From an uncultured Pseudomonadales bacterium (GTDB lineage: Bacteria > Patescibacteriota > Microgenomatia > UBA1400 > MFAQ01), in assembly GCA_964357975.1 (NCBI GenBank), contig CAYHNG010000003.1, positions 393 to 64,392 of the forward strand: DNA of 64,000 bases, in the 5' to 3' direction. A program made the position numbers and the translations under genes. Of the stretch, positions 37,756 through 62,769 are shown piece after piece (the stretch's first letter is position 1; every line of letters starts with the position of its first letter). The notes under the pieces were generated by a model that was given only the letters and a program-made list of their open reading frames with translations, had not been told where the DNA came from and ran no database searches.

Positions 37756-38059
37756 AATTGGCTATCCCTAGTACGAGAGGAATGCCCTGCCGCAAGGCGG
37801 GGAGGAAAGTCCGGACAGCTAAAAGGAAGGGTGGCCATCGAAAGGTGGTCTCCCGCCAAGTAATTGGCGGGACGCGATAGGGCCACAGAGACGATTAAAG
37901 GTGAAACGTTCCACCGTTAGGTGGAGATCCTTTAAGAGTAATCTTAGAGGAGTGGTAACCCGCCCCGCTGCAATCGACGAATTGGGATTAAGGTACCTTT
38001 TCTATCCCTAAAGTCTCGAGCATAGATAGATATTCCTCCACGACAGAATCCGGCTTATT
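37756..38059 (+). ncRNA. rnpB: RNase P RNA (bacterial type)
   Basis: P4 5' strand GGGGAGGAAAGTCCGGAC (about 37788-37805) and P4 3' strand CGACAGAATCCGGCTTAT (38031-38048). P1 CCCTAGTAC (37756-37764) pairs with GTACTAGGG (38050-38058). ACAGAGA and AGGTGAAAC motifs. The ends are approximate. Confidence 0.8.
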
Positions 38060-38072
38060 GTACTAGGGAGCC

Positions 38073-38105
38073 CGCAAGGGCTCGTTGGGTGGAACGTTTT
38101 CAAAC
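38073..38105 (+). repeat. direct repeat DR1 (CGTTGGGTGGAACGTTTTCAAACTTTTTCAGAC) immediately 3' of rnpB
   Basis: 29/33 identical to 39328-39360. The last 20 nt are identical. Confidence 0.6.
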
Positions 38106-49266: not shown

Positions 49267-49340
49267 CGGGGTATAGTATAACGGCAGTATGCGCGCATGG
49301 GGTGCGCGCGATCTCAGTTCAATTCTGAGTACCCCGACCA
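49267..49340 (+). tRNA. tRNA-Pro (anticodon GGG), with encoded CCA
   Basis: Hand-folded. Acceptor CGGGGTA pairs with TACCCCG. U8, G10, A14, GG18-19, A21. Anticodon stem CGCGC/GCGCG, loop ATGGGGT (U33, GGG, G37). T-arm CTCAG-TTCAATT-CTGAG. Discriminator A, then CCA. Confidence 0.85.
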
Positions 49341-52808: not shown

Positions 52809-53750
52809 ATGAAAATATTGGTAACCGGGGGAGCAGGCTTCTTGGGGTCTCATTTGTGCAAGAAACTGCTGAGTGAAAAACATAGGGTCATTTGTATAGA
52901 TAATTTTTATACCGGTAGAAAACAGAATATTGACGAGCTGACGACGGACACTAATTTTCAAATTATTGAAGGAGATATTACCAAACCACTTGATTTTGAG
53001 GAATTGGACAGAATATACAATTTGGCTTGTCCGGCATCTCCGCCTGCGTACCAAAAAGATCCGGTTTATACTTGGAGAACTTCCGTCTTGGGAATGAATA
53101 ATATGCTGGAGCTGTCCAGAAAAAATAATAATGTTCCGATACTTCAAGCATCAACATCAGAGATCTATGGGGATCCTCTGGAGCATCCTCAAAAAGAAAG
53201 TTACTGGGGAAACGTAAATCCTTGCGGTATCAGATCCTGTTATGACGAGGGAAAGAGGGCGGCCGAGACTATCTGCATGGATTTTTTTAGAAAGTATCAA
53301 ACTCCGGTTAGAGTGATTCGGATTTTTAACACCTATGGACCAAATATGGATCCCCAAGATGGCCGAGTGGTCAGCAATTTTATAATGGAGGCTCTGACTA
53401 ACCAAGATATTACTATCTATGGGGACGGTAGCCAAACCAGGAGCTTCCAGTTTGTGAGCGATCTAATTGAAGGCATGACGCGGATGATGGAAAACAAAGA
53501 AGGTTCTACCGGTCCGGTGAATCTTGGTAACCCTGTTGAATTTACCGTGAAACAACTAGCTGAGATAGTTTTGGAAATGATTCCGGAATCCACCAGTAAA
53601 ATAGTCTTCCGGCCGATACCGGGTGATGACCCTAAAGTTCGGAAACCGGATATCACTCTGGCACGAGAAAAACTTGGATGGGAGCCAAAAGTACCCTTGC
53701 GTGAAGGGCTCTTCAAAACAATTGAGTATTTTCGGAACCAGATTTTATAG
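52809..53750 (+). CDS. UDP-glucuronate decarboxylase (UDP-xylose synthase), SDR family
   Basis: 313 aa. ILVTGGAGFLGSHL, with a YxxxK catalytic region. Closest to the UXS type. Confidence 0.75.
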   Translation: MKILVTGGAGFLGSHLCKKLLSEKHRVICIDNFYTGRKQNIDELTTDTNFQIIEGDITKPLDFEELDRIYNLACPASPPAYQKDPVYTWRTSVLGMNNMLELSRKNNNVPILQASTSEIYGDPLEHPQKESYWGNVNPCGIRSCYDEGKRAAETICMDFFRKYQTPVRVIRIFNTYGPNMDPQDGRVVSNFIMEALTNQDITIYGDGSQTRSFQFVSDLIEGMTRMMENKEGSTGPVNLGNPVEFTVKQLAEIVLEMIPESTSKIVFRPIPGDDPKVRKPDITLAREKLGWEPKVPLREGLFKTIEYFRNQIL

Positions 53751-55514
53751 AGGAGCGGGCTGGCCGTAGTCGAAAATTTTGATGGGAGTTTGTTCCTGAT
53801 TAACCAGTGTGTTGCCGGAGAAAACCAACTTGACCAGAAGGCCTTTCCTGGTTTCTTCCGACCACATTTGATCAAAAACTAAATTGCCAAGCGAATAATA
53901 AATTGGTTTTTCCTTGTATATTTCAACCTCCTGGACCCAGTGCGGGTGATGACCAATAACGACATCAGCACCCGAGTCAATAGCCAGGCGGGCAAGCTCC
54001 ACCTGATGAGATGTCCGCTGACGATACTCGTTCCCCCAATGGAAAGAGGCCACTACGATATTGGCTTGCGATTTGGCATAAGCTATTTGCCCGGAGATAT
54101 TTATTGGCCAAGACATGGCAACTTCCGTAAAATACGGAGGGGTGTCGTTAAACCCAAGAAAAGCAACTTTCGTCTTCCGAACATCTTTGATAACAAGTTT
54201 GCCCAAACCGATCGGAGTAATTTTATTTTGGTTAAGGAGCGAGAGTGTGAAATCAAACCCTTCTTTCCCCTGGTTACTTATATGGTTGTTGGCCAGATTA
54301 ACAATATCTATGCCGGCCAAAATTAAACCATCGACAGATCGAGGGTCGGCGCAAAAAAACATACCCGTATCGGTAGGCTGACAGTCCGAATTAAAGGGTG
54401 ATTCCAGGTTGACGATGGTCAGATCGGCCGTTGATAAAAGATTGGCTATTTTTCTAAAAGGCCAGGAGAAATCCCGATATTTGATCATTCTGGTGTTAAC
54501 AGATCGACCAAGCATGACATCACCGCCGAAGACGAGGGTGGTAGTGTTGATCTTAGATTTCAGATCTCGGATGTCCGCTGGGGAAGGAGATGTGTTTGGA
54601 TTTGCGATTTTTTTTCCGATAAGTAAGTAGTAAGAGGTAACTGATTCCGGGATATTGTTAAAAGAAAACGAATCGGTGTGAACCAAAATCTCTGAAGATA
54701 ATGATTTGGTTTGAATAATTTTCAAGGTGGATATCAGAGAGGCTGGAGAGTCCAAATATTCGGAGGATAGTTTTTCAATGACCGAATAATTATGGTCACG
54801 TATTAAACTCTCGGTCCGGGTATCCCGTTCGACTGCCTGGTCATGATTTAAGCCATGGGAAAAATCGATAGAAGCGATAACTACAACATGAGGCGAGGCC
54901 GAGATAAGTTGTTGAGAAAAACGCTCGAGTAAAATAGGATCGATATTTTTCTTTAAGGCAAAGGGGATAACTTTGGTGTTTGGCAAATAATAGGCCAGGA
55001 AGGGCATCAACCCGGCGAGTCCGTGTTCCGGTATAAGGGCACTGTCGTCCAAACACGCCGTTTCGTATTTGATAAACGAACTCTGCAGATCTTGATCCAC
55101 AAGTATTTGTCCAAATGGAGTATCCCAGCCATTAGAAGACGAAACGATGTCACACTGACCGATGTTGGCGTGATTCGGTGACAGAAGAATAATTGTCCGC
55201 GGTGGGTCTGCAGTTAGTAAGGAGATCCCCCTGGCGATAACGTTGGAGGCGGTTAAATGGTGAGGAATAACCAGAACAGAAGGAGACGAACCTTTGGGAA
55301 GATGGGGGTATTGGGAAATCGCGGGGAAAAAGGTCCTGTTATCGTAGGCAAAGTCGGTAGAAAAAGTGGGCGATACAGAGAGAGGTTTCCTCGATATGCC
55401 AAAAAAATATAAAAATGCCCCAAAAGTAAGGACAAGCAATATTATTCCTTTTATGTATCCAGATGGATTCCCGATCGGGTCGGGAATGACAAGGGACTGT
55501 TTGGCGATTTTCAT
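53745..55514 (-). CDS. fusion protein: Memo/LigB-like (class III extradiol dioxygenase fold) domain plus a CapA/PGA_cap metallophosphatase domain
   Basis: 589 aa. N-terminal TM, then LVIPHH...IDFSHGL (Memo-like). C-terminal LVFGGDVMLGRSVNT...NLESPF...NLANNHISNQG...FHWGNEYRQ...DVVIGHHPHW (CapA family). Confidence 0.6.
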   Translation of the reverse strand: MKIAKQSLVIPDPIGNPSGYIKGIILLVLTFGAFLYFFGISRKPLSVSPTFSTDFAYDNRTFFPAISQYPHLPKGSSPSVLVIPHHLTASNVIARGISLLTADPPRTIILLSPNHANIGQCDIVSSSNGWDTPFGQILVDQDLQSSFIKYETACLDDSALIPEHGLAGLMPFLAYYLPNTKVIPFALKKNIDPILLERFSQQLISASPHVVVIASIDFSHGLNHDQAVERDTRTESLIRDHNYSVIEKLSSEYLDSPASLISTLKIIQTKSLSSEILVHTDSFSFNNIPESVTSYYLLIGKKIANPNTSPSPADIRDLKSKINTTTLVFGGDVMLGRSVNTRMIKYRDFSWPFRKIANLLSTADLTIVNLESPFNSDCQPTDTGMFFCADPRSVDGLILAGIDIVNLANNHISNQGKEGFDFTLSLLNQNKITPIGLGKLVIKDVRKTKVAFLGFNDTPPYFTEVAMSWPINISGQIAYAKSQANIVVASFHWGNEYRQRTSHQVELARLAIDSGADVVIGHHPHWVQEVEIYKEKPIYYSLGNLVFDQMWSEETRKGLLVKLVFSGNTLVNQEQTPIKIFDYGQPAPL

Positions 55515-58500
55515 TTGATACTCACGGAGCCGGCAGGAGAAAGGTTGAAAACCGAAGGAGAGATAAGCGACTGAATGAGAGCACTCTCGGCACGGAACTT
55601 CCCGGCTGAAATCACCCGAGCATAGTAATTGATGGTTTTGTTTTCATCGCCTTTACCGACACAGAAACTTACTCTTTGACCATTTATTTCGTAGGGATAC
55701 CAGATATTGCCGGTATCAAGTCCATAACTATAAACACTGGCGATCGGTTTGAGTCCTGAAGGCAACAGATCCGTAACTTGATAACACCCGTCTTGAGAAA
55801 TGGTGGTGTGAGCTACCGGTAGCGAAATGCGCACCAAGTCGGCAGTGGCAAAATTGTTGGTGGAGGCGCCCCGGACAGAATAAGTTCTACCCAATTTTAC
55901 CGATGGGTCGACAACAGCTGTTTTTGGATCAAGTACCGAAGTATAAGAGGTGCTTAGGCCAATATCCCCATTTAGGTCACTAAAGGTAATCTCCGTCAGT
56001 TCTTTGGGTGAAAGTCCCAGCTTAAAGACCTGACCTTTCTCAAGTTTCTTTAATGTTTTTTTACCATTCAGAGTGTAGGTAAACGAAACCGGCTGTGGCT
56101 GAAGATTATCTATTTGATGAGAAATTGCCAACAATTGAGGTGAAACGAGAAGAAGATCTTTGCTCCTGTTAGACAAAGTGTAGGCGAGTAAGCTGTCCGC
56201 TTCCGGCTCTGCCAAGATGGCAGCGAGGGAGGAGGCAAGTGCAGTGGCATGAAGGTAGCTGTCTTTATCCGCTCCGATCTTCAAATAGGTTAGCGTGTCC
56301 TGCTTGACAGCAAATTCGGCGAGAAGAGTTCGATAGGTAAGGCGAGCTTTTTCGTTGTCTCCAAGTCCGGCCTGAGCAAGCCCCAAATACAGCCGTGATA
56401 ACGGTTCGAGGTGCTTTTCATCCGAAAGATTATTGGTAAGCAGTAAAACAGGTTCGTCTAAACTAGCCAGACCAAAGAGGGAGATTGCAGCAGTTTCCGT
56501 ATCTTTGGCTTGGGCTAATTGGCGATAGAAATAGTTGCCCAATCCGACGGTGTCCACTCTTTCTTTAGCCAAATTTGCAACAAAGGCCGAAAGCTCGATA
56601 TCCGCACCGGAGTAGGGAAAAAGGGCAAAACCGCCATCAGAAGTTTGGAAAGCGGTAAAGTCAAAGGCTTCGGGCTGGACTGAGCTGTCAAAAATTTTAG
56701 CGATAACGGACTGAGAAATATTCCTTGCCAAACGTTGATCTAGCCGATCCCCCCAGGTATAAGCCAAATTGGAGAGCGGAGGGAAGAAGCGACCCAGACT
56801 TTTGTCGGAAAAAATTAAGTCGGTGACGGAGTCGGCAGAACCTTCCGGCTTGGAGTCGGATGATAAGGTGGTATGGGTGGTTTTGACGATTTTAAGACGG
56901 GATCTGAGAACGGTAATCTTTTTAGTAATCTTGTCGGAAAGGATGCCGGAATTGCCTGATAAAACAATGTTGTGTGACCCTTCTTTTAGCTCTCCCAAAT
57001 CTACACCAGCACTTTCAAAAGCCTTCAAATTTAAGCTTTTATCCAGATTTAAAGTTGGCGACTGAATCCGAAGAGTGACCTGATCTCCCGGTGACAAACC
57101 TTCACCATAGGCACGGACGGAGATTTCCGGGCGCTCACCCATCAAATATTCGGTGTTCATAACCACATCAACAAAGAAGGGCTGCTTGACGACCAAGAGA
57201 TTGGAGCTGGCGCCTACTTTGAGGTCTCCAGTAACCCCTTGCGAGGTAATTCTCCAAGAGGTGAGATTGTCGGGAAGTTTGACGTCCAAGCCTGCACGAC
57301 CATCGCTTCCGGTTCGAACACTACCAAAGTAGGCATTGTCTACAAATAGCTCTCGGCCCTTTTCGTTGTGAACATAAAACCCATCAGCAAAGTAGGTGTT
57401 GTATTTTTCGACCGTAAAATTGAAGACAGTATTGATGCCGGAACGAGACTCGAGGGAATAAATTTTTTGATAAATTCCATGCGAGTCGAGGTAATAGTCT
57501 CCGACTTTGACCTCTCCCGCCGTCATGAAACGGCCGTTGATGTAAAGATTGTGTTCGGCGGTAACTCTGAGTCGATTGTTGATTAAATAATAACCTGAGA
57601 CTTGATGCCGGAATACCTGGATAACTTTGGCGCTAACTGATTTGGTTGAAGAGGGACTTTGGAGCGTTTTGATACTATCGCCAACAACGACATCTTCAAT
57701 GTTTTTGGTTTTGCCATTCCCCATGAGGATAGTGGTGCCAGGCAGGAAACAACCACCACCTTCGGCCCCGGAGATGTCAAGAGGATATTGGTGAGATTGA
57801 TACGAAACTAGAATGTCAGCGTCTAATGAAGAATAAATTCTAGTCAAGGGATCGACCGTTACCGGACTCATAGCGTTATACGCTTCGTCAAGAAAGCTAA
57901 TATTAACTTCTGCCGATGCCGGATTACCCTTTTGATCTTTGGAGAGGATGGAGAGTCTCACTGTATCTCCCGGAAGATATGACGACTTATCTTGGGTGAT
58001 ATCAAGAGAAAGTTTTTTACCGGAAGGGTCGAACATTAAATTCAAACTTTCCGAAACTTCATACGTTTGTCCGGTAAACCTAACGGCTCGAACGGAGATG
58101 TTGGGGATAAAGGCTTCGGAGAACCGGAAGTTGATACTTGGATCGTCCGAAATTTGATAGGATCTAATCCCTCGCTGAGCAAAGAGGTAAAGGAATTTGT
58201 CGGAATCGGTGGAGGGCATGGGAGTCTCACCGCGCATGACTTTTAGACTAACCGGTTCATCGACGGCATATCTATCATTACTTCCGGTTTTATCTGTTTT
58301 GAGAAAAACGTAGTTATTGTGGGGATAGCTGTCGGCAGATCCGGAAACATAAACGTCCTGAGTAGTAACACGGTTTTGATCATCTGCGGTACGAAAAATG
58401 ACGTTGTAAGATTTGCCTGCCGAAACCGGGAATTCGTAAACCGCCCGTCCATTGGAGTCTGTAGTGAGGGTGATATCGGCAATTTTGTTTTGGACGCGAT

Positions 58501-60778
58501 CGTATTCGTAACGGGGGGAAGTGACTTTGTTTATAAAGTCATAATAAGTACCGACTTCCCGACGGTTCCACTGATTTTCCATGAGAACTCCGGTGATAGC
58601 TTTGCCGGGTGCCGGAGAAAAAGCGTCAAACGAAGTATAGGGTACAAACTTGGAAGTATCTACCTGCCGCAGATCCAACTCTACCCGGCCTGTTGTCCCT
58701 TTTGATTCAGCTTTGGTTGAATTAAAGGCTAGAGAAGAACTGAAGACCGCCACTGAAACATCAGCTTGAATCTCGCCTTCTTCGGGCAACGATGGACGAA
58801 CGTAATAATAAGTGTATTCGGGTGAGTAGTTGATAAAGTTGGGACTCATAGAAGTAACTTGGTGAAAACCGAACCTCCCCAACGAATCGGTCGTCACCGA
58901 ACCACTTAAATCACGGCCGGCATATTTTAGTTCCATTCCCGGTACCGGCGAACCCTCGAAAAAAGTGGCCTGACCGGAAAGAGTAATTGTTTCTCCGACA
59001 ATGGCGGCTTTTTGAGAGGACTGAAGCGTGAGGCGATAAGCTGGCTTGGTGTAAGTGGCTACCGTAAACGAGGAGCTCATGATGATAGATTCACCAATTT
59101 TGAGAGAAATGCCGTACCAGCCCGGATTGTAACCGGACAAAGGAATTTCGCCGATAAAGGTTCCCAGATCGCTAGTTTCAAAGTCTTTGGTAAAAAGGAC
59201 GATGGGATTAAAATCCCAGCTCGTATAATCCGACCGTGTAACTTCTAAAGTGAACTTTTGTTTTTGATTGAGGTTGTCCCTATCTCTGAGGAGTCCCCAG
59301 AATTTAACTTGGTCAGTGGGAAGATATGACGGCCGATCGGTATAAAAGTAGCTCCAGTATTTATCTGACAGGCGACGGGATTGTTGATATTTGGAATAAT
59401 AGTAATTGTTGTTAATATTTCGGGGAGGGAGAATTAAGGTGCGGCCAGCGTGGCTAACCGTTAACATGGTCTGGTCCTCCAGTTGTGACGCCGGAGTATC
59501 GAAGTAAGCAACTCCTTCCGACCCCGTTTCTTGTTCTTTTCCGGCGATACTTACCTTGGCACCGACAACCGACTTTTTGGACCCGATATCATTGACCCAA
59601 ACCAACGTCTTCGTACCGCTAATACTAAGATATGCAGAAAGATCGGTAATCTGAACCAGGGCCTGCGTAGTAACTCCTCCCGGACCTCCAATGTTCCCCT
59701 GAACCAGATAAAGTCCTTGAGGAAGCTGCTGGGGCAGAAGGAAATAGTTGGTGTATGTTTGGAGCTGAATAGGCGTGTGGAAATCCAGGACCTTGTTGAG
59801 CCCAGCGACCGGTAAACGTTTTGAATGGAGCGAATTGTAGGCCCATGTGGGGATAGAAAGAAGGGTGTTGAAGTCTGAATAAAAACCCTGTATGCCGGGA
59901 TACTGATAAACCTCCACCGATAAATCACCACCACCGGAGGAAGAAGTGTAGATGTCAAACGCAGGTGTTTCGGAAGGTGAAAACTCATAGAAATTTCGAG
60001 CAAACCCGAGTGTGGTGGTGTTGGTTGCCGGCTGGGTTTCGAAACGATACACAAAATTCTCCTTGAGGGTTTCGGACGTGCCTTTCAATTTCAGACCCTT
60101 CTTAAGCCGGATGGTGTAAAGAGTGCTGGGTGCCAGGCTCTTAGGAATGAAGGATACCGTCCGCTTGTGGCGTTCAAAGCGGCCCTCGACAGCGGGAGAA
60201 ATTTCAAAGTTACCCTCTTTAAAACCGATGTATTCCCAGTTGTCATGACTGAAGGTAATCTCGATTCCGGTGTTGAGAGGTACGTAAGTAGCTTGATCTC
60301 GGGGAAGGGTTTGAACAACACGGAAGTCATTTTTGGTTTGAAAAGCCCACGAAAATGTCCGCTGTTCGGAAAGAATCTTGATGCGATACAAACTATTATT
60401 CTTGAGAGGAGTCTTGGGAGAGAGACTAAACTGACGAGGATTGACCTCTCTAATGTCGAAATCAATTTCAGGAAAGAAGGTCACGTTATTTTTTAGTCCG
60501 GCGACGGTGAGATCTTGGTCGGACTTAAGCGTAAAAGTAGAATCCGAAAATGTTCCGAGTGAATCTTGTCGATCTGCAGTAAGTAACAGTCCGGCGTCCG
60601 AACCAAGTTTGAGCTTGGCAGTATGCTGAAGATATTGTGAAGCGAGAATGACTGAGATGAGTAATCCCAACGAGGCAAACAAAATCCCAAACAGTTGCCA
60701 AGGCTTCAAAGAACGTAAAAAAGACTTGATTTTTCCCATCGATGATTTCAGTTTAGTTTCAGTGTTGGGAGATGTCAA
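55511..60778 (-). CDS. alpha-2-macroglobulin-family giant surface protein (no CxEQ thioester seen) with an inserted Hint/bacterial intein-like domain
   Basis: 1755 aa. N-terminal TM. A2M signature RELFVDNAYFGSVRTGSDGRAGLDVKLPDNLTSWRITSQGV. Downstream QTSDGGFALF (TED-like, no thioester). Hint domain as in the next feature. Its start overlaps the upstream M14 gene stop as ATGA. Confidence 0.7.
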   Translation of the reverse strand: MTSPNTETKLKSSMGKIKSFLRSLKPWQLFGILFASLGLLISVILASQYLQHTAKLKLGSDAGLLLTADRQDSLGTFSDSTFTLKSDQDLTVAGLKNNVTFFPEIDFDIREVNPRQFSLSPKTPLKNNSLYRIKILSEQRTFSWAFQTKNDFRVVQTLPRDQATYVPLNTGIEITFSHDNWEYIGFKEGNFEISPAVEGRFERHKRTVSFIPKSLAPSTLYTIRLKKGLKLKGTSETLKENFVYRFETQPATNTTTLGFARNFYEFSPSETPAFDIYTSSSGGGDLSVEVYQYPGIQGFYSDFNTLLSIPTWAYNSLHSKRLPVAGLNKVLDFHTPIQLQTYTNYFLLPQQLPQGLYLVQGNIGGPGGVTTQALVQITDLSAYLSISGTKTLVWVNDIGSKKSVVGAKVSIAGKEQETGSEGVAYFDTPASQLEDQTMLTVSHAGRTLILPPRNINNNYYYSKYQQSRRLSDKYWSYFYTDRPSYLPTDQVKFWGLLRDRDNLNQKQKFTLEVTRSDYTSWDFNPIVLFTKDFETSDLGTFIGEIPLSGYNPGWYGISLKIGESIIMSSSFTVATYTKPAYRLTLQSSQKAAIVGETITLSGQATFFEGSPVPGMELKYAGRDLSGSVTTDSLGRFGFHQVTSMSPNFINYSPEYTYYYVRPSLPEEGEIQADVSVAVFSSSLAFNSTKAESKGTTGRVELDLRQVDTSKFVPYTSFDAFSPAPGKAITGVLMENQWNRREVGTYYDFINKVTSPRYEYDRVQNKIADITLTTDSNGRAVYEFPVSAGKSYNVIFRTADDQNRVTTQDVYVSGSADSYPHNNYVFLKTDKTGSNDRYAVDEPVSLKVMRGETPMPSTDSDKFLYLFAQRGIRSYQISDDPSINFRFSEAFIPNISVRAVRFTGQTYEVSESLNLMFDPSGKKLSLDITQDKSSYLPGDTVRLSILSKDQKGNPASAEVNISFLDEAYNAMSPVTVDPLTRIYSSLDADILVSYQSHQYPLDISGAEGGGCFLPGTTILMGNGKTKNIEDVVVGDSIKTLQSPSSTKSVSAKVIQVFRHQVSGYYLINNRLRVTAEHNLYINGRFMTAGEVKVGDYYLDSHGIYQKIYSLESRSGINTVFNFTVEKYNTYFADGFYVHNEKGRELFVDNAYFGSVRTGSDGRAGLDVKLPDNLTSWRITSQGVTGDLKVGASSNLLVVKQPFFVDVVMNTEYLMGERPEISVRAYGEGLSPGDQVTLRIQSPTLNLDKSLNLKAFESAGVDLGELKEGSHNIVLSGNSGILSDKITKKITVLRSRLKIVKTTHTTLSSDSKPEGSADSVTDLIFSDKSLGRFFPPLSNLAYTWGDRLDQRLARNISQSVIAKIFDSSVQPEAFDFTAFQTSDGGFALFPYSGADIELSAFVANLAKERVDTVGLGNYFYRQLAQAKDTETAAISLFGLASLDEPVLLLTNNLSDEKHLEPLSRLYLGLAQAGLGDNEKARLTYRTLLAEFAVKQDTLTYLKIGADKDSYLHATALASSLAAILAEPEADSLLAYTLSNRSKDLLLVSPQLLAISHQIDNLQPQPVSFTYTLNGKKTLKKLEKGQVFKLGLSPKELTEITFSDLNGDIGLSTSYTSVLDPKTAVVDPSVKLGRTYSVRGASTNNFATADLVRISLPVAHTTISQDGCYQVTDLLPSGLKPIASVYSYGLDTGNIWYPYEINGQRVSFCVGKGDENKTINYYARVISAGKFRAESALIQSLISPSVFNLSPAGSVSIK
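57366..57751 (-). other. Hint (intein/BIL-like) domain within the A2M-like protein: CFLPGTTILMGNGK...VTAEHNLY...YFADGFYVHN, followed by Glu
   Basis: Block A (Cys1...GD..V), block B (TAEH) and C-terminal VHN are present. The +1 residue is E, not C/S/T. About 129 aa. Cys codon at 57751-57749, terminal Asn at 57368-57366. Confidence 0.75.
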
Positions 60779-61701
60779 TGAATACTATGCGAAGAAATTT
60801 CCCAAAGTTCAGCCAAATGTGCCACAATACTCTCTTGAGCACGAATACGATCGGCTAGTATTCCCTTACCCGGTGTCTCCGTCACAATTGAAGTTGTCGC
60901 AAATGGTTTGGGCACAATCTTCCTTTCTATATCAAAATATGTTTCGTTCGAAATAAACTCATCTACAGATCCGTCTTTCACACGGTTTCCATGTGTATCG
61001 GTCACGATTCCATTGGTAATTTTTTCTCCTGCAAACCTAGTCTCTCCTGACATTTTCAGCGGAACACCCGACTTCACAAATAATTCCACCACTTTAGCGG
61101 CGACAGGATCCCTCTTCTCTAGCGTTCCCTGAGAATATACATACCCTTCTTCTAGCTGTTCGTCCTCGTGTAAATCAAAGTACAGCAATGGTGGAAATTT
61201 ATTTAGTAGACCCAAAAAATGTTTGGTGACAGTGTCAGCTACCCCATGAATAGGTGACCTCAATATAGGTTGCTTTGGATTCTCGATGCGAGATATTAAG
61301 TGCCTGCTATCAGTGACATTCAGCCTCTCGATACTTCTTTCTACGTGGTGAAATCTCCAATTCCGGTAGTATCCTGCCGGATTAAGAAGAGGCATGATAA
61401 CCATAGGGACTGTGCTACCCAGTTTACCAAGGTAGTCAATCTGTTGGGCCACGGCGTTTGGACCTGCCGGTTCTTCCCCGTGGATGCCCGTAATAAGCCA
61501 TAGTGACTCTCCCTGCTTAGGTGATAAGAAACAATAAACAGGTACATTTATTTCGCCATTGTTCCCCTGTATTTTGATGCTATATATAAGCTCTTTGCTC
61601 CACCCATATTTTGACTCCAGATCTATAGACCTGTGATACAGATCGTAGAGAGACATCCTGCCATCTGCGTAAGTGGGGATCTCTTTTAACTGTTCCAGCA
61701 T
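60775..61701 (-). CDS. M14-like zinc carboxypeptidase (succinylglutamate desuccinylase/aspartoacylase, AstE-AspA family)
   Basis: LWLITGIHGEEPAG zinc-binding HxxE motif. The start was trimmed to MLEQLKEI (ATG at 61701), because the track ORF runs to 61926 and would overlap the divergent gene at 61732. Confidence 0.55.
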   Translation of the reverse strand: MLEQLKEIPTYADGRMSLYDLYHRSIDLESKYGWSKELIYSIKIQGNNGEINVPVYCFLSPKQGESLWLITGIHGEEPAGPNAVAQQIDYLGKLGSTVPMVIMPLLNPAGYYRNWRFHHVERSIERLNVTDSRHLISRIENPKQPILRSPIHGVADTVTKHFLGLLNKFPPLLYFDLHEDEQLEEGYVYSQGTLEKRDPVAAKVVELFVKSGVPLKMSGETRFAGEKITNGIVTDTHGNRVKDGSVDEFISNETYFDIERKIVPKPFATTSIVTETPGKGILADRIRAQESIVAHLAELWEISSHSIH

Positions 61702-61731
61702 GGCAACTATTGTATCTGATAGAATACCCCT

Positions 61732-62769
61732 ATGAAAGAAGTTCCGTTCTTTTCTGTATCCGGTAGTCACTATGAATGCGGAAGGCAGTTGGGCACAAAT
61801 TTCAAAGCCCAGATCTACAAATACCTCGATCTTTGTAAAAACGAACCTCCACCCAACCTCACCTGGCAAGAGTGTGTTAATCACGCCGATAGATTTGTTG
61901 AGATTACCAAGCAATGCTTTCCGCAAATAATTGAGGAAATCCAGGGCACCGCCGCAGGGTCAGGCATAGAATTTATAGAATTATTTGCTCTTACGATTGA
62001 AGAGCTGTATTCCGAAAGCTATTCGCTCAAAGGCTGCACCGATATTGTTCTGCTTCCGCCAGCCAGTGAACACACGATTGTCATTCACAATAATGATCTT
62101 CCGGGAAGTTTTTATGATGTTCTTACTCAAGTTGAATGGAATTTCGACGACGGCACTCAAATGTTTACTGTAGGTTTGGGCGGTTTTATGGTTAGTGTCG
62201 GAGTAAACAACTCGAGATTGGTTTTGTCCGGAAATGCTTTGACCCCTACGGACGTTCGCGTTGGCATACCTCGCGCTCTAATTGCTCGGGCTATTTTACT
62301 GGCTAAGACTTTTGACGAAGCTATTGAAATTGCCAATCACCCAAACCGGGCCTCTTCCTACAACAATATTATTACCGTCCCCAACAAATCAGTCAGCGTT
62401 GAAGGATCAGCGACGAGTTCTGACAACATATTGCCCAAAAACGGTGTTCTCACTCATAGCAACCACTACTGCTCCAAAAAAATGCTCCCTTTTGAAGGCC
62501 ATCCGAACTACACGAGCTCCATCGAGAGATTCAATGCAGCCAATAGGATTACCGGGACGGCGAATGAGCCGGTCGACCTAAAAACAGCCGAATTGTGGCT
62601 TGCCGATCATAGCCCAAATGACGTGGGTGATGACAATACTCTTTGTCGGCACGGAAAGACATCCGAAACCACTTTTGGCTTTGCAGTAGATTTGAATACA
62701 GGAATTGTAGAAGTGGCTTCCGGCCATCCATGCCAAAACTCTTTCAAAAAAGTCTGGGAAATAAAATGA
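61732..62769 (+). CDS. C45-family Ntn-hydrolase (acyl-CoA:6-aminopenicillanic-acid acyltransferase-like peptidase)
   Basis: 345 aa. N-terminal SGSHYECGRQLG, with a putative autoproteolytic nucleophile in KGCTDIVL. Confidence 0.6.
   Translation: MKEVPFFSVSGSHYECGRQLGTNFKAQIYKYLDLCKNEPPPNLTWQECVNHADRFVEITKQCFPQIIEEIQGTAAGSGIEFIELFALTIEELYSESYSLKGCTDIVLLPPASEHTIVIHNNDLPGSFYDVLTQVEWNFDDGTQMFTVGLGGFMVSVGVNNSRLVLSGNALTPTDVRVGIPRALIARAILLAKTFDEAIEIANHPNRASSYNNIITVPNKSVSVEGSATSSDNILPKNGVLTHSNHYCSKKMLPFEGHPNYTSSIERFNAANRITGTANEPVDLKTAELWLADHSPNDVGDDNTLCRHGKTSETTFGFAVDLNTGIVEVASGHPCQNSFKKVWEIK

Follow-up and report, generated by a model that had tools for sequence, protein, structure and literature searches.

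The 64,000-nucleotide stretch of contig CAYHNG010000003.1 analyzed here (the window) belongs to a member of the Patescibacteria (candidate phyla radiation, CPR) with a Collierbacteria-like genome. One of its genes encodes an alpha-2-macroglobulin (A2M)-like protein that carries a Hint domain of 129 residues within its bait loop. We identify this domain as a type-A bacterial intein-like (BIL) domain in the sense of Pietrokovski, which is PT-HINT in the sense of Pfam. The analysis establishes the architecture, the fold, the site of insertion, and the pattern of conservation. As for function, the sequence leads us to favor, tentatively and with somewhat less than even confidence, a model in which the Hint, acting in cis and independently of any outside protease, cuts itself out and leaves the protein as two chains severed at the bait loop.

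The Hint domain and its A2M-like host

Profile and structure searches both place the inserted domain among BIL domains. It scored 34.5 bits against PT-HINT (PF07591), for which the gathering cut-off is 27.7, and gave sub-threshold and near-threshold NCBIfam matches to the N- and C-terminal splicing regions of inteins. The Hint sequence on its own matched the BIL domain of C. thermocellum (2LWY) with an E-value of 1e-5; a profile of the Hint and its flanks matched 2LWY at 4e-19 and the BIL2 domain of Tetrahymena BUBL1 (6Y75, 6TMM) at 1e-17, compared to 1e-9 or worse for true inteins. A separate AlphaFold2 model of residues 1000-1150 (predicted local distance difference test, pLDDT, 89.4; predicted template modeling score, pTM, 0.83) matched BIL2 with a TM-score of 0.80 and 2LWY with TM-scores of 0.78/0.85 and a root-mean-square deviation of 1.8 Å; mini-inteins and the Hedgehog autoprocessing domain came next. 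The domain combines the attributes of type-A BILs, i.e., a Hint fold, an initial cysteine (Cys1, here Cys1010), a TxxH motif in block B (Thr1073 and His1076), a C-terminal His-Asn pair (block G, His1137-Asn1138), and a non-nucleophilic residue at position +1 (Glu1139). We considered and rejected a canonical class-1 intein, given the glutamate at +1, the lack of an endonuclease (129 residues leave no room for a homing endonuclease), the co-divergence of the domain with its host, and its site in a variable loop. Public names of some homologues are "polymorphic toxin-type HINT domain-containing protein" and "alpha-2-macroglobulin family protein"; the polymorphic-toxin reading of PT-HINT, which NCBI's name for some homologues implies, was also rejected, since no toxin domain lies downstream of the Hint. 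The domains that do follow are MG8, CUB, a TED-like domain, and MG10.

The remainder of the protein is predicted to adopt the full A2M/TEP fold. Pfam matches to Big_5, MG2, A2M_BRD, PT-HINT, and A2M all exceeded the gathering score, while bMG3, bMG6, and bMG10 gave weak matches only. An AlphaFold2 model of residues 600-1755, built with an alignment of 75 homologues, reached a mean pLDDT of 87.9 and a pTM of 0.70. Its best Foldseek match in the PDB was E. coli ECAM (9e-43), followed by the Salmonella A2M (SaA2M) and by human A2ML1, A2M, C5, CD109, and TEP1. By Pfam, model, and Foldseek together, the protein has the parts that define the A2M/TEP superfamily: a ring of macroglobulin (MG) domains, BRD, MG8, CUB/TED, and a C-terminal MG domain. 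The A2M domain itself aligns to residues 728-803 of human A2M and 975-1037 of ECAM. A hydrophobic segment near the N-terminus would act as a signal anchor or long signal peptide, placing the remainder of the protein outside the membrane; the protein is probably membrane-anchored via its N-terminus. Residues are numbered here from a TTG codon. An identical database protein (P0001) starts 13 residues later, at an ATG at 60737-60739, and has 1742 residues; which of the two is the true start codon is ambiguous, and the finding is unaffected either way.

By alignment, the thioester site is homologous but decayed. No CxEQ motif occurs across the whole 1755-residue protein, which contains only three cysteines (1010, 1665, and 1706), and the sequence reads YTWGDRLDQ where ECAM has YPYGCLEQ. 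The lack of CxEQ excludes membership of the type I A2Ms but not of the superfamily, where the thioester-less MagD is accepted.

Two sets of alignments place the Hint in the bait loop. In the family profile, residues 728-803 of human A2M align to the segment that starts right after the Hint, a point that we take to be the end of the human bait. ECAM residues 854-919 align before the Hint and 975-1037 after it, so that the Hint falls within ECAM 920-974. This interval contains the ECAM bait, Arg923-Leu942, which turns disordered upon cleavage by elastase (PMC4498604). In the host model, the Hint forms a block with pLDDT values of 76-94 between two disordered linkers (pLDDT < 50), the second of which opens with Glu1139 at +1 and Lys1140 at +2, a lysine linked to the presence of the Hint (see below). 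When the Hint is subtracted, the loop between two conserved anchor residues measures 19-28 residues (median 21), and in Hint-less relatives it measures 19-51 residues (median 21.5). The Hint is a clean insertion into a bait loop of about 21 residues.

A first-pass annotation, made from the DNA sequence, had described an A2M-fold protein with no CxEQ thioester and with a catalytically intact Hint domain, analogous to BIL domains, at the bait-region position. Each of these points is borne out: the fold by the MG2, A2M_BRD, and A2M matches above threshold and by the Foldseek match to ECAM, the missing thioester by a site decayed to GDRLDQ, the Hint by profile and structure checks (PF07591, 2LWY, BIL2), the BIL analogy by the identity of the best sequence and structure matches, and the site by the alignments to ECAM and human A2M. 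The motifs quoted there were all found as claimed, namely the A2M hallmark (RELFVDNAYF, residue 1142), QTSDGGFALF (residue 1378), the Cys1 block (CFLPGTT, residue 1010), TAEH (residues 1073-1076), and the terminal VHN followed by glutamate (residues 1136-1139). The boundaries given for the Hint, 57751-57366, are right at the start and one base short at the end, which lies at 57365.

Distribution, conservation, and inheritance

The architecture recurs widely. Among the 120 best whole-protein homologues, 82 contain a Hint of 128-130 residues at exactly the same site, at identities down to 31%. When residues 900-1230 were searched against 1.84 billion cluster representatives, 394 clusters were recovered at E ≤ 1e-30; in about 140 of the best 150 matches, the pre-bait domain, Hint, and post-bait domain were continuous, in proteins of 1700-1900 residues. 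Some of these proteins unexpectedly contain a TED_complement domain together with a CxEQ motif. A search from one of them, P0252, uncovered a sister family in which 113 of 120 proteins have the Hint, all 113 with a CxEQ motif approximately 225 residues downstream. This family (P0252, P0222, P0229, P0301, and some 120 relatives) retains a TED_complement domain and CxEQ, and the bait-loop Hint of its Hint-bearing members measures 128-129 residues. The full collection came to 303 full-length A2Ms with a Hint, of which 121 have the thioester motif and 182 lack it. An assembly artefact or chimera is excluded, given that hundreds of independent homologues share the architecture. Nor is the Hint a product of chance, with E-values of 4e-19 and 1e-17 against solved BIL domains and the insertion recurring in 303 homologues. 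Since the thioester-bearing sister family carries the Hint, the domain is not simply a substitute for the lost thioester; we likewise rejected the idea that the Hint thioester stands in generally for that of the TED, as 121 Hint-bearing homologues retain CxEQ.

By the source names of the database proteins, on which the taxonomy rests, both families occur in Patescibacteria (Collierbacteria, Parcubacteria, Magasanikbacteria, Kerfeldbacteria, Daviesbacteria, Woesebacteria, Roizmanbacteria, and Pacebacteria), and Hint-less relatives are found also in Bacillota/Clostridia. One thioester-bearing A2M with a Hint (P0323) is labeled Nevskiaceae (Gammaproteobacteria), which may be a binning error. A 47-residue fragment (P0121) labeled Caudoviricetes clusters with P0012 at 90% identity.

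Across the 303 proteins, at least 97% conserve Cys1, Phe2, Thr6, the block-B Thr and His, a Gly-Asp pair, the block-F pattern V.N...T..A, and the terminal V-H-N, at pairwise identities down to about 27%; among the 82 closest homologues, these positions do not vary at all. Length is 128-130 residues in 297 of the 303. On the N-terminal side, glycine occupies position -1 in 295 and position -2 in 281. On the C-terminal side, the +1 residue is Gln (104), Asp (94), Glu (71), Ala (12), Ser (8), or another residue (14), such that it is Gln, Asp, or Glu in 269 of 303 and non-nucleophilic in 293; Ser, Thr, or Cys occurs in only 10. A lysine follows the Hint in 302 of 303 proteins, at +2 (257), +3 (42), or +1 (3). 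Hint-less relatives read AE.GG, then a Gly-rich stretch, then R..F.D, and the lysine is not conserved at that position, which indicates that the [Q/D/E]K dipeptide travels with the Hint. Some Hint-less relatives do have RK a few residues ahead of the F.D motif.

Related Hint domains are also found in other settings. Four proteins, P0162 (2780 residues), P0178 (3399), P0207 (662), and P0211 (1132), contain three to five tandem Hints that are about 40% identical to the A2M Hint, accompanied by MopE metal-binding motifs in P0162 and a Tim44-like domain in P0211. The junctions between Hint copies in P0211 and P0207 read HN-K-G(-G)-C. A lysine directly after HN seems to be a feature of the whole Hint clade.

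Divergence of the Hint follows that of its host. Mean pairwise identity is 46% for the Hint and approximately 31-40% for most host regions, with only Big_5 (52%) and the A2M domain (51%) higher. Hint identity correlates with host identity (r = 0.82), and the nearest Hint neighbor lies within the same host family for 296 of 303 proteins. By these comparisons, the Hint has long been passed on vertically rather than homing between genes, and the same two figures leave a recent horizontal spread unsupported. In a neighbor-joining tree of host columns, the Hint-less proteins P0021, P0022, P0034, P0119, P0039, and P0097 fall inside Hint-bearing clades. This tree is a simple one with saturated distances, from which the number of losses or gains is uncertain; the variation in Hint presence between orthologues is solid. 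The locus of P0022 (L007, 6001-10797) is syntenic with the window, the genes in both running in the order A2M, Memo-CapA (50% identical), bactofilin, RecA, RecX, and RNase Y, which makes P0022 a positional orthologue without the Hint. Its junction reads GAEGGGGGGGSLFR, where the [E/D]K dipeptide is also absent. Either the Hint was not lost here by a clean removal of just its own codons, or P0022 shows the ancestral state.

Several of these patterns suggest that the Hint is under selection and not just carried along. Over two paralogous families, both its length and its catalytic residues stay constant, and the Hint is more conserved than most host domains while its divergence tracks the host. 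A loop that tolerates insertions and deletions (19-51 residues) should readily lose a useless insert. The +1 residue, moreover, has been kept non-nucleophilic though a single change would permit clean splicing.

Processing of the bait loop

Characterized type-A BILs form an N-terminal thioester and cyclize their terminal asparagine but, without a +1 nucleophile, form no branched intermediate; their products are mostly cleaved, and ligation is possible when the amine of the freed C-terminal fragment attacks the thioester (PMC4031507; PMC7664689). A single substitution of the +1 residue by Cys, Ser, or Thr makes BILs efficient splicers (PMC7664689). In A2Ms, cleavage of the bait untethers a disordered segment, and the resulting conformational change activates the thioester (PMC4498604). 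Our autoprocessing model for the window protein draws on its genuine BIL matches, invariant catalytic residues, non-nucleophilic +1, disordered flanks, and position in the bait. Each chemical step and its consequence are proposed by analogy with these systems. The Hint would act as a single-turnover autoprocessing enzyme in which Cys1010, assisted by Thr1073 and His1076, attacks the carbonyl of Gly1009 (an N-S acyl shift) to give a Gly-Cys thioester. Asn1138 would then cyclize with the help of His1137, breaking the Asn1138-Glu1139 bond. With glutamate at +1, no branched intermediate would form, and cleavage would dominate as in characterized type-A BILs. The N-terminal product would contain the MG ring and BRD and end at Gly1009, staying anchored if residues 26-51 are retained; the C-terminal product would run from Glu1139 to residue 1755 and contain MG8, CUB, the TED-like domain, and MG10. 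Such a cut could serve as a maturation step, comparable to what furin does to C3/C4/C5 at their equivalent loop, or as a built-in trigger of the A2M conformational change.

Two points of the first-pass annotation need qualification here. It excluded canonical splicing in view of the glutamate at +1, which is correct for class-1 splicing; splicing of other kinds is not impossible, given that type-A BILs can ligate, although they mainly cleave (PMC4031507), and that BIL2 forms an isopeptide with lysine (PMC8616854). It also suggested, as one option, release of the N-terminal ~1000 residues. With residues 26-51 retained as an anchor, it is the C-terminal 617 residues that would be released instead.

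A number of observations weigh against self-excision with cleavage. The syntenic orthologue P0022 and other Hint-less proteins are nested in Hint-bearing clades, and a positional orthologue without the Hint implies that the uncut, continuous chain is functional. A bait that is always pre-cut would seem to be a spent trap, above all in the CxEQ-bearing sister family. Simple hydrolysis leaves the Hint-linked lysine (+2/+3) and the Gly-Gly pair (-2/-1) unexplained, and the closest solved homologue, BIL2, ligates its flanks via a lysine isopeptide (PMC8616854). We infer self-cleavage itself from homology and conservation only.

In a serious rival reading, which we estimate to be less probable, the severed chain is joined again. 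An amine on the released C-terminal fragment would attack the Gly1009 thioester in cis; it could be the alpha-amine of Glu1139, as proposed for type-A BIL splicing, or, as in BIL2, the epsilon-amine of Lys1140, which would form an isopeptide. The mature protein would then be a continuous chain with an ordinary short bait loop, and the Hint an intein-like passenger or a checkpoint for folding or export. Capture by the freed amine is a route by which type-A BILs can splice (PMC4031507), in agreement with the title of an article by Aranko (2013), and BIL2, the top structural match, joins a lysine epsilon-amine to a C-terminus (PMC8616854). The BIL2 junction, RGG before Cys1, aligns with the [G/K]GG that precedes Cys1 in the family, a lysine lies within +1 to +3 in 302 of 303 Hint-bearing proteins but is unconserved there in Hint-less relatives, and the catalytic residues of both ends, which ligation needs, are conserved. 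The Hint-subtracted loop is as long as the Hint-less one (medians of 21 and 21.5), and clean losses have recurred, one of them in the syntenic orthologue. Re-ligation best accounts for the Hint-linked lysine, the Gly-Gly, the two catalytic ends, and the dispensability of the domain in orthologues. It fits less well with the finding that characterized type-A BILs mainly cleave (PMC4031507; PMC7664689) or with the scarcity of Ser, Thr, or Cys at +1 (10 of 303), from which strong selection for efficient ligation does not seem to be at work. If the Hint were no more than a selfish element, a loop that tolerates indels (19-51 residues) should also have shed it with ease.

The Gly thioester of the N-terminal fragment might instead be passed to an outside amine or hydroxyl, e.g., a lysine of a bait-bound protease, a protein of the host-cell surface, or the organism's own cell wall, for covalent capture or adhesion. 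Parallels are BIL2, which hands on ubiquitin-like domains in this way, and Hedgehog's Hint domain, which attaches cholesterol. With its Gly-Gly at -2/-1, the N-flank looks like an activated ubiquitin-like C-terminus; BIL2 needs no ATP to conjugate its own N-flank to unrelated substrates (PMC8616854), and the A2M thioester, which normally targets lysine amines (PMC7864068), is lost in the window protein. An episymbiotic lifestyle has also been inferred for much of the Patescibacteria, whose A2Ms are suspected of host interaction (PMC9793634). We nonetheless judge such transfer in trans decidedly improbable: 121 Hint-bearing homologues have an intact CxEQ, so that the Hint is not a replacement warhead, the minimal 129-residue Hint has no visible region that could recruit an acceptor, and transfer alone would not require the conserved terminal asparagine. 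The broader proposition that the Hint is an ATP-independent, BIL2-like acyl-transfer module, passing a Gly-Gly thioester to a lysine that may be Lys1140 in cis or a lysine in trans, is by analogy conceivable and, we consider, unlikely. If it were true, transfer in cis would yield an isopeptide-spliced bait, and transfer in trans would mean that Patescibacterial A2Ms carry a covalent-capture warhead inside the bait, the second one beside the TED thioester in the sister family. There is hardly any probability that the Hint is a silent structural or binding domain on the bait loop, with outside proteases cutting the linkers if anything does. Inactive Hint-fold modules occur in other proteins, and the two disordered linkers could themselves serve as bait; degenerate Hint domains, however, typically lose their catalytic residues, and here Cys1, T..H, and HN are invariant in 82 proteins and at least 97% conserved over 303, at identities down to about 27%. 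Computation does not separate these readings.

To our knowledge, every characterized member of the A2M family is triggered in trans, when a protease cuts its bait or a loop equivalent to it. Another logic is implied when this loop holds a conserved autoprocessing domain: self-maturation, self-triggering, or thioester-mediated conjugation from the bait. Two A2M lineages of the Patescibacteria show the architecture in hundreds of their proteins, and most of the homologues sampled have it. Earlier work lists A2M homologues of Patescibacteria among candidates for host interaction, with no mention of a Hint (PMC9793634), and a role in the interaction with host cells has been suggested for these proteins. 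The first-pass annotation knew of no A2M with such a domain. In line with this, a full-text literature search, whose coverage left out most subscription journals, found no description of an A2M combined with a Hint, intein, or BIL; the window protein is nevertheless not unique, as our survey gave at least 303 Hint-bearing homologues. From the sequences, the components (A2M and type-A BIL) are known and their combination appears new. It would also give the BIL field a clear example of a BIL/Hint domain taken up at a defined structural position within a molecular machine that is well understood, and so a host protein in which the outcome of processing can be read structurally. The thioester-bearing sister family would show directly whether Hint processing fires the A2M thioester.

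Genomic context and comparison with known systems

Table 1. Features of the A2M-like protein, its gene neighborhood, and the rest of the window (positions are those of the window unless a related locus is named; aa, residue numbers of the A2M-like protein)
Feature	Position	Strand	Basis or remark
A2M-like open reading frame (ORF)	55511-60778	-	1755 aa counted from TTG; stop codon included
Hydrophobic segment, aa 26-51	60626-60703	-	Kyte-Doolittle scan; sole strongly hydrophobic stretch
Big_5 Ig-like domain, aa 151-248	60035-60328	-	Pfam, E 5e-12
MG2 macroglobulin domain, aa 477-571	59066-59350	-	Pfam, E 2e-10
A2M_BRD, aa 834-967, MG domain before bait	57878-58279	-	Pfam, E 2e-9; aligns with ECAM 854-919
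N-side bait linker, aa 991-1009	57752-57808	-	Ends in conserved AEGGG; Gly1009 = -1; pLDDT < 50
Hint domain, type-A BIL/PT-HINT, aa 1010-1138 (129 aa)	57365-57751	-	Pfam, profile, structure, conservation
C-side bait linker, aa 1139-1147 (EKGRELFVD)	57338-57364	-	pLDDT < 50 (AlphaFold2 model: aa 1140-1147)
A2M domain (PF00207), aa 1151-1221, MG domain after bait	57116-57328	-	Pfam
Helical TED-like domain, aa 1328-1557	56108-56797	-	Includes QTSDGGFALF; AlphaFold2 helices (model 729-958); whole-model Foldseek
Decayed thioester site, WGDRLDQ, aa 1342-1348	56735-56755	-	Aligned with YPYGCLEQ (ECAM) and YPYGCVEQ (sister family)
C-terminal MG10-like domain, aa 1643-1741	55556-55852	-	Weak bMG10 match; ECAM 1343-1641 aligns to family profile
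Transmembrane segment + Memo + PGA_cap (CapA) fusion gene	53745-55514	-	Downstream; overlaps A2M stop codon by 4 nt
Memo genes in related loci	L003 13333-14217; L005 11312-12220; L006 10873-11754; L007 11049-12524; L009 11192-12073; L010 11066-13022
383-aa ORF upstream of A2M	60775-61926	-	Sub-threshold M14 carboxypeptidase and AstE/AspA matches only
AAT (peptidase C45-like) ORF	61732-62769	+	Divergent
Low-GC region	1-6400	-	All genes on this strand; GC 0.33-0.38 vs. ~0.45 elsewhere; GC skew reversed
Bacterial class-A RNase P RNA	37765-38073	+	118.8 bits
tRNA-Pro(GGG)	49267-49340	+

The features of the protein and its surroundings are listed in Table 1. Of the eight loci examined, seven have a Memo-family gene directly behind the A2M-like gene, and the two often overlap at the A2M stop codon. 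At some loci, PGA_cap/CapA is fused to Memo or comes next after it. In the remaining locus (L001), Memo lies 8 kb from the A2M gene, behind an IS110-type insertion. The pairing is independent of the Hint, of the thioester, and of phylum (Patescibacteria or Bacillota). This A2M-Memo(-CapA) cassette is unlike the ECAM-pbpC and mag operons, and we found no discussion of it in the literature examined. Upstream, the 383-residue ORF and the A2M ORF overlap by 4 nt, where the stop codon of the former meets the TTG start of the latter; the true start of this M14-like ORF is probably further downstream, since its 5' end overlaps the AAT ORF by ~195 nt, and it is not a conserved neighbor of the A2M gene in the other loci examined. 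At the far end of the window, positions 1-6400 encode two radical-SAM proteins (one with a B12-binding domain), a methyltransferase, an ATP-grasp protein, and a CoaE-like kinase, and may represent an acquired modification or biosynthetic cluster. No structured RNA gene other than the RNase P RNA and the single tRNA-Pro(GGG) was found in the 64 kb.

The window protein shares with the type I bacterial A2Ms (ECAM/YfhM and SaA2M) the MG ring, BRD, MG8, CUB, TED, and MG10, and its Hint occupies the same position as their bait loop. ECAM, however, has a thioester (CLEQ), is anchored as a lipoprotein, is paired with pbpC, and has a Hint-free bait that outside proteases cut, none of which is found here. 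Of the traits that define type I (lipoprotein anchor, CLEQ, and pbpC linkage), the window protein lacks the thioester, and its gene has Memo-CapA and the M14-like ORF as neighbors instead of pbpC. The type II A2Ms (P. aeruginosa MagD, YfaS-type) likewise have an A2M fold without CxEQ, a likeness judged by absence of the motif only. MagD lacks a Hint, however, and the window organism is not a typical Gram-negative bacterium. No mag-like multi-gene operon was seen in the window or the eight related loci, where the Mag proteins themselves were not searched for. Complement C3/C4/C5 resemble the window protein in having an extra domain (ANA) and a chain-breaking site in the loop equivalent to the bait, but furin and convertases cut them in trans, whereas the Hint would itself be the cutter. 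As Janssen and colleagues are said to have reported in 2005, the two-chain form of complement is the mature, still-latent protein.

With respect to the inserted domain, class-1 mini-inteins (Ssp DnaB, Npu DnaB, and Mtu RecA) have the same Hint fold and blocks A, B, F, and G; in contrast to these, the window Hint lacks a +1 Cys, Ser, or Thr, sits outside the conserved site of an essential enzyme, and diverges with its host. BIL2 of Tetrahymena thermophila BUBL1 also has Gly-Gly before Cys1, and its block-B His and a second His (BIL2 H48) align with those of the window domain. A lysine in the C-flank of BIL2 is the isopeptide nucleophile (PMC8616854), and the window family has its Hint-linked lysine just after the Hint. 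BIL2 is eukaryotic and has ubiquitin-like flanks, of which the window protein has none, and its zinc ligand H125 is an asparagine here; transfer to lysine is demonstrated for BIL2, whereas for the A2M Hint only the sequence prerequisites (GG and Lys at +1 to +3) are present. With the C. thermocellum BIL (2LWY), the best sequence match, and with PT-HINT, the window domain shares a minimal Hint of ~130 residues, Cys1, TxxH, His-Asn, no +1 nucleophile, and no homing endonuclease. Like type-A BILs in general, it is placed in a variable region of an exported bacterial protein. It differs from them in lying within an A2M bait loop, rather than before a C-terminal toxin or in a hypervariable adhesin tail, and in having conserved flanks throughout its family, with GG at -2/-1 and Lys at +2/+3.

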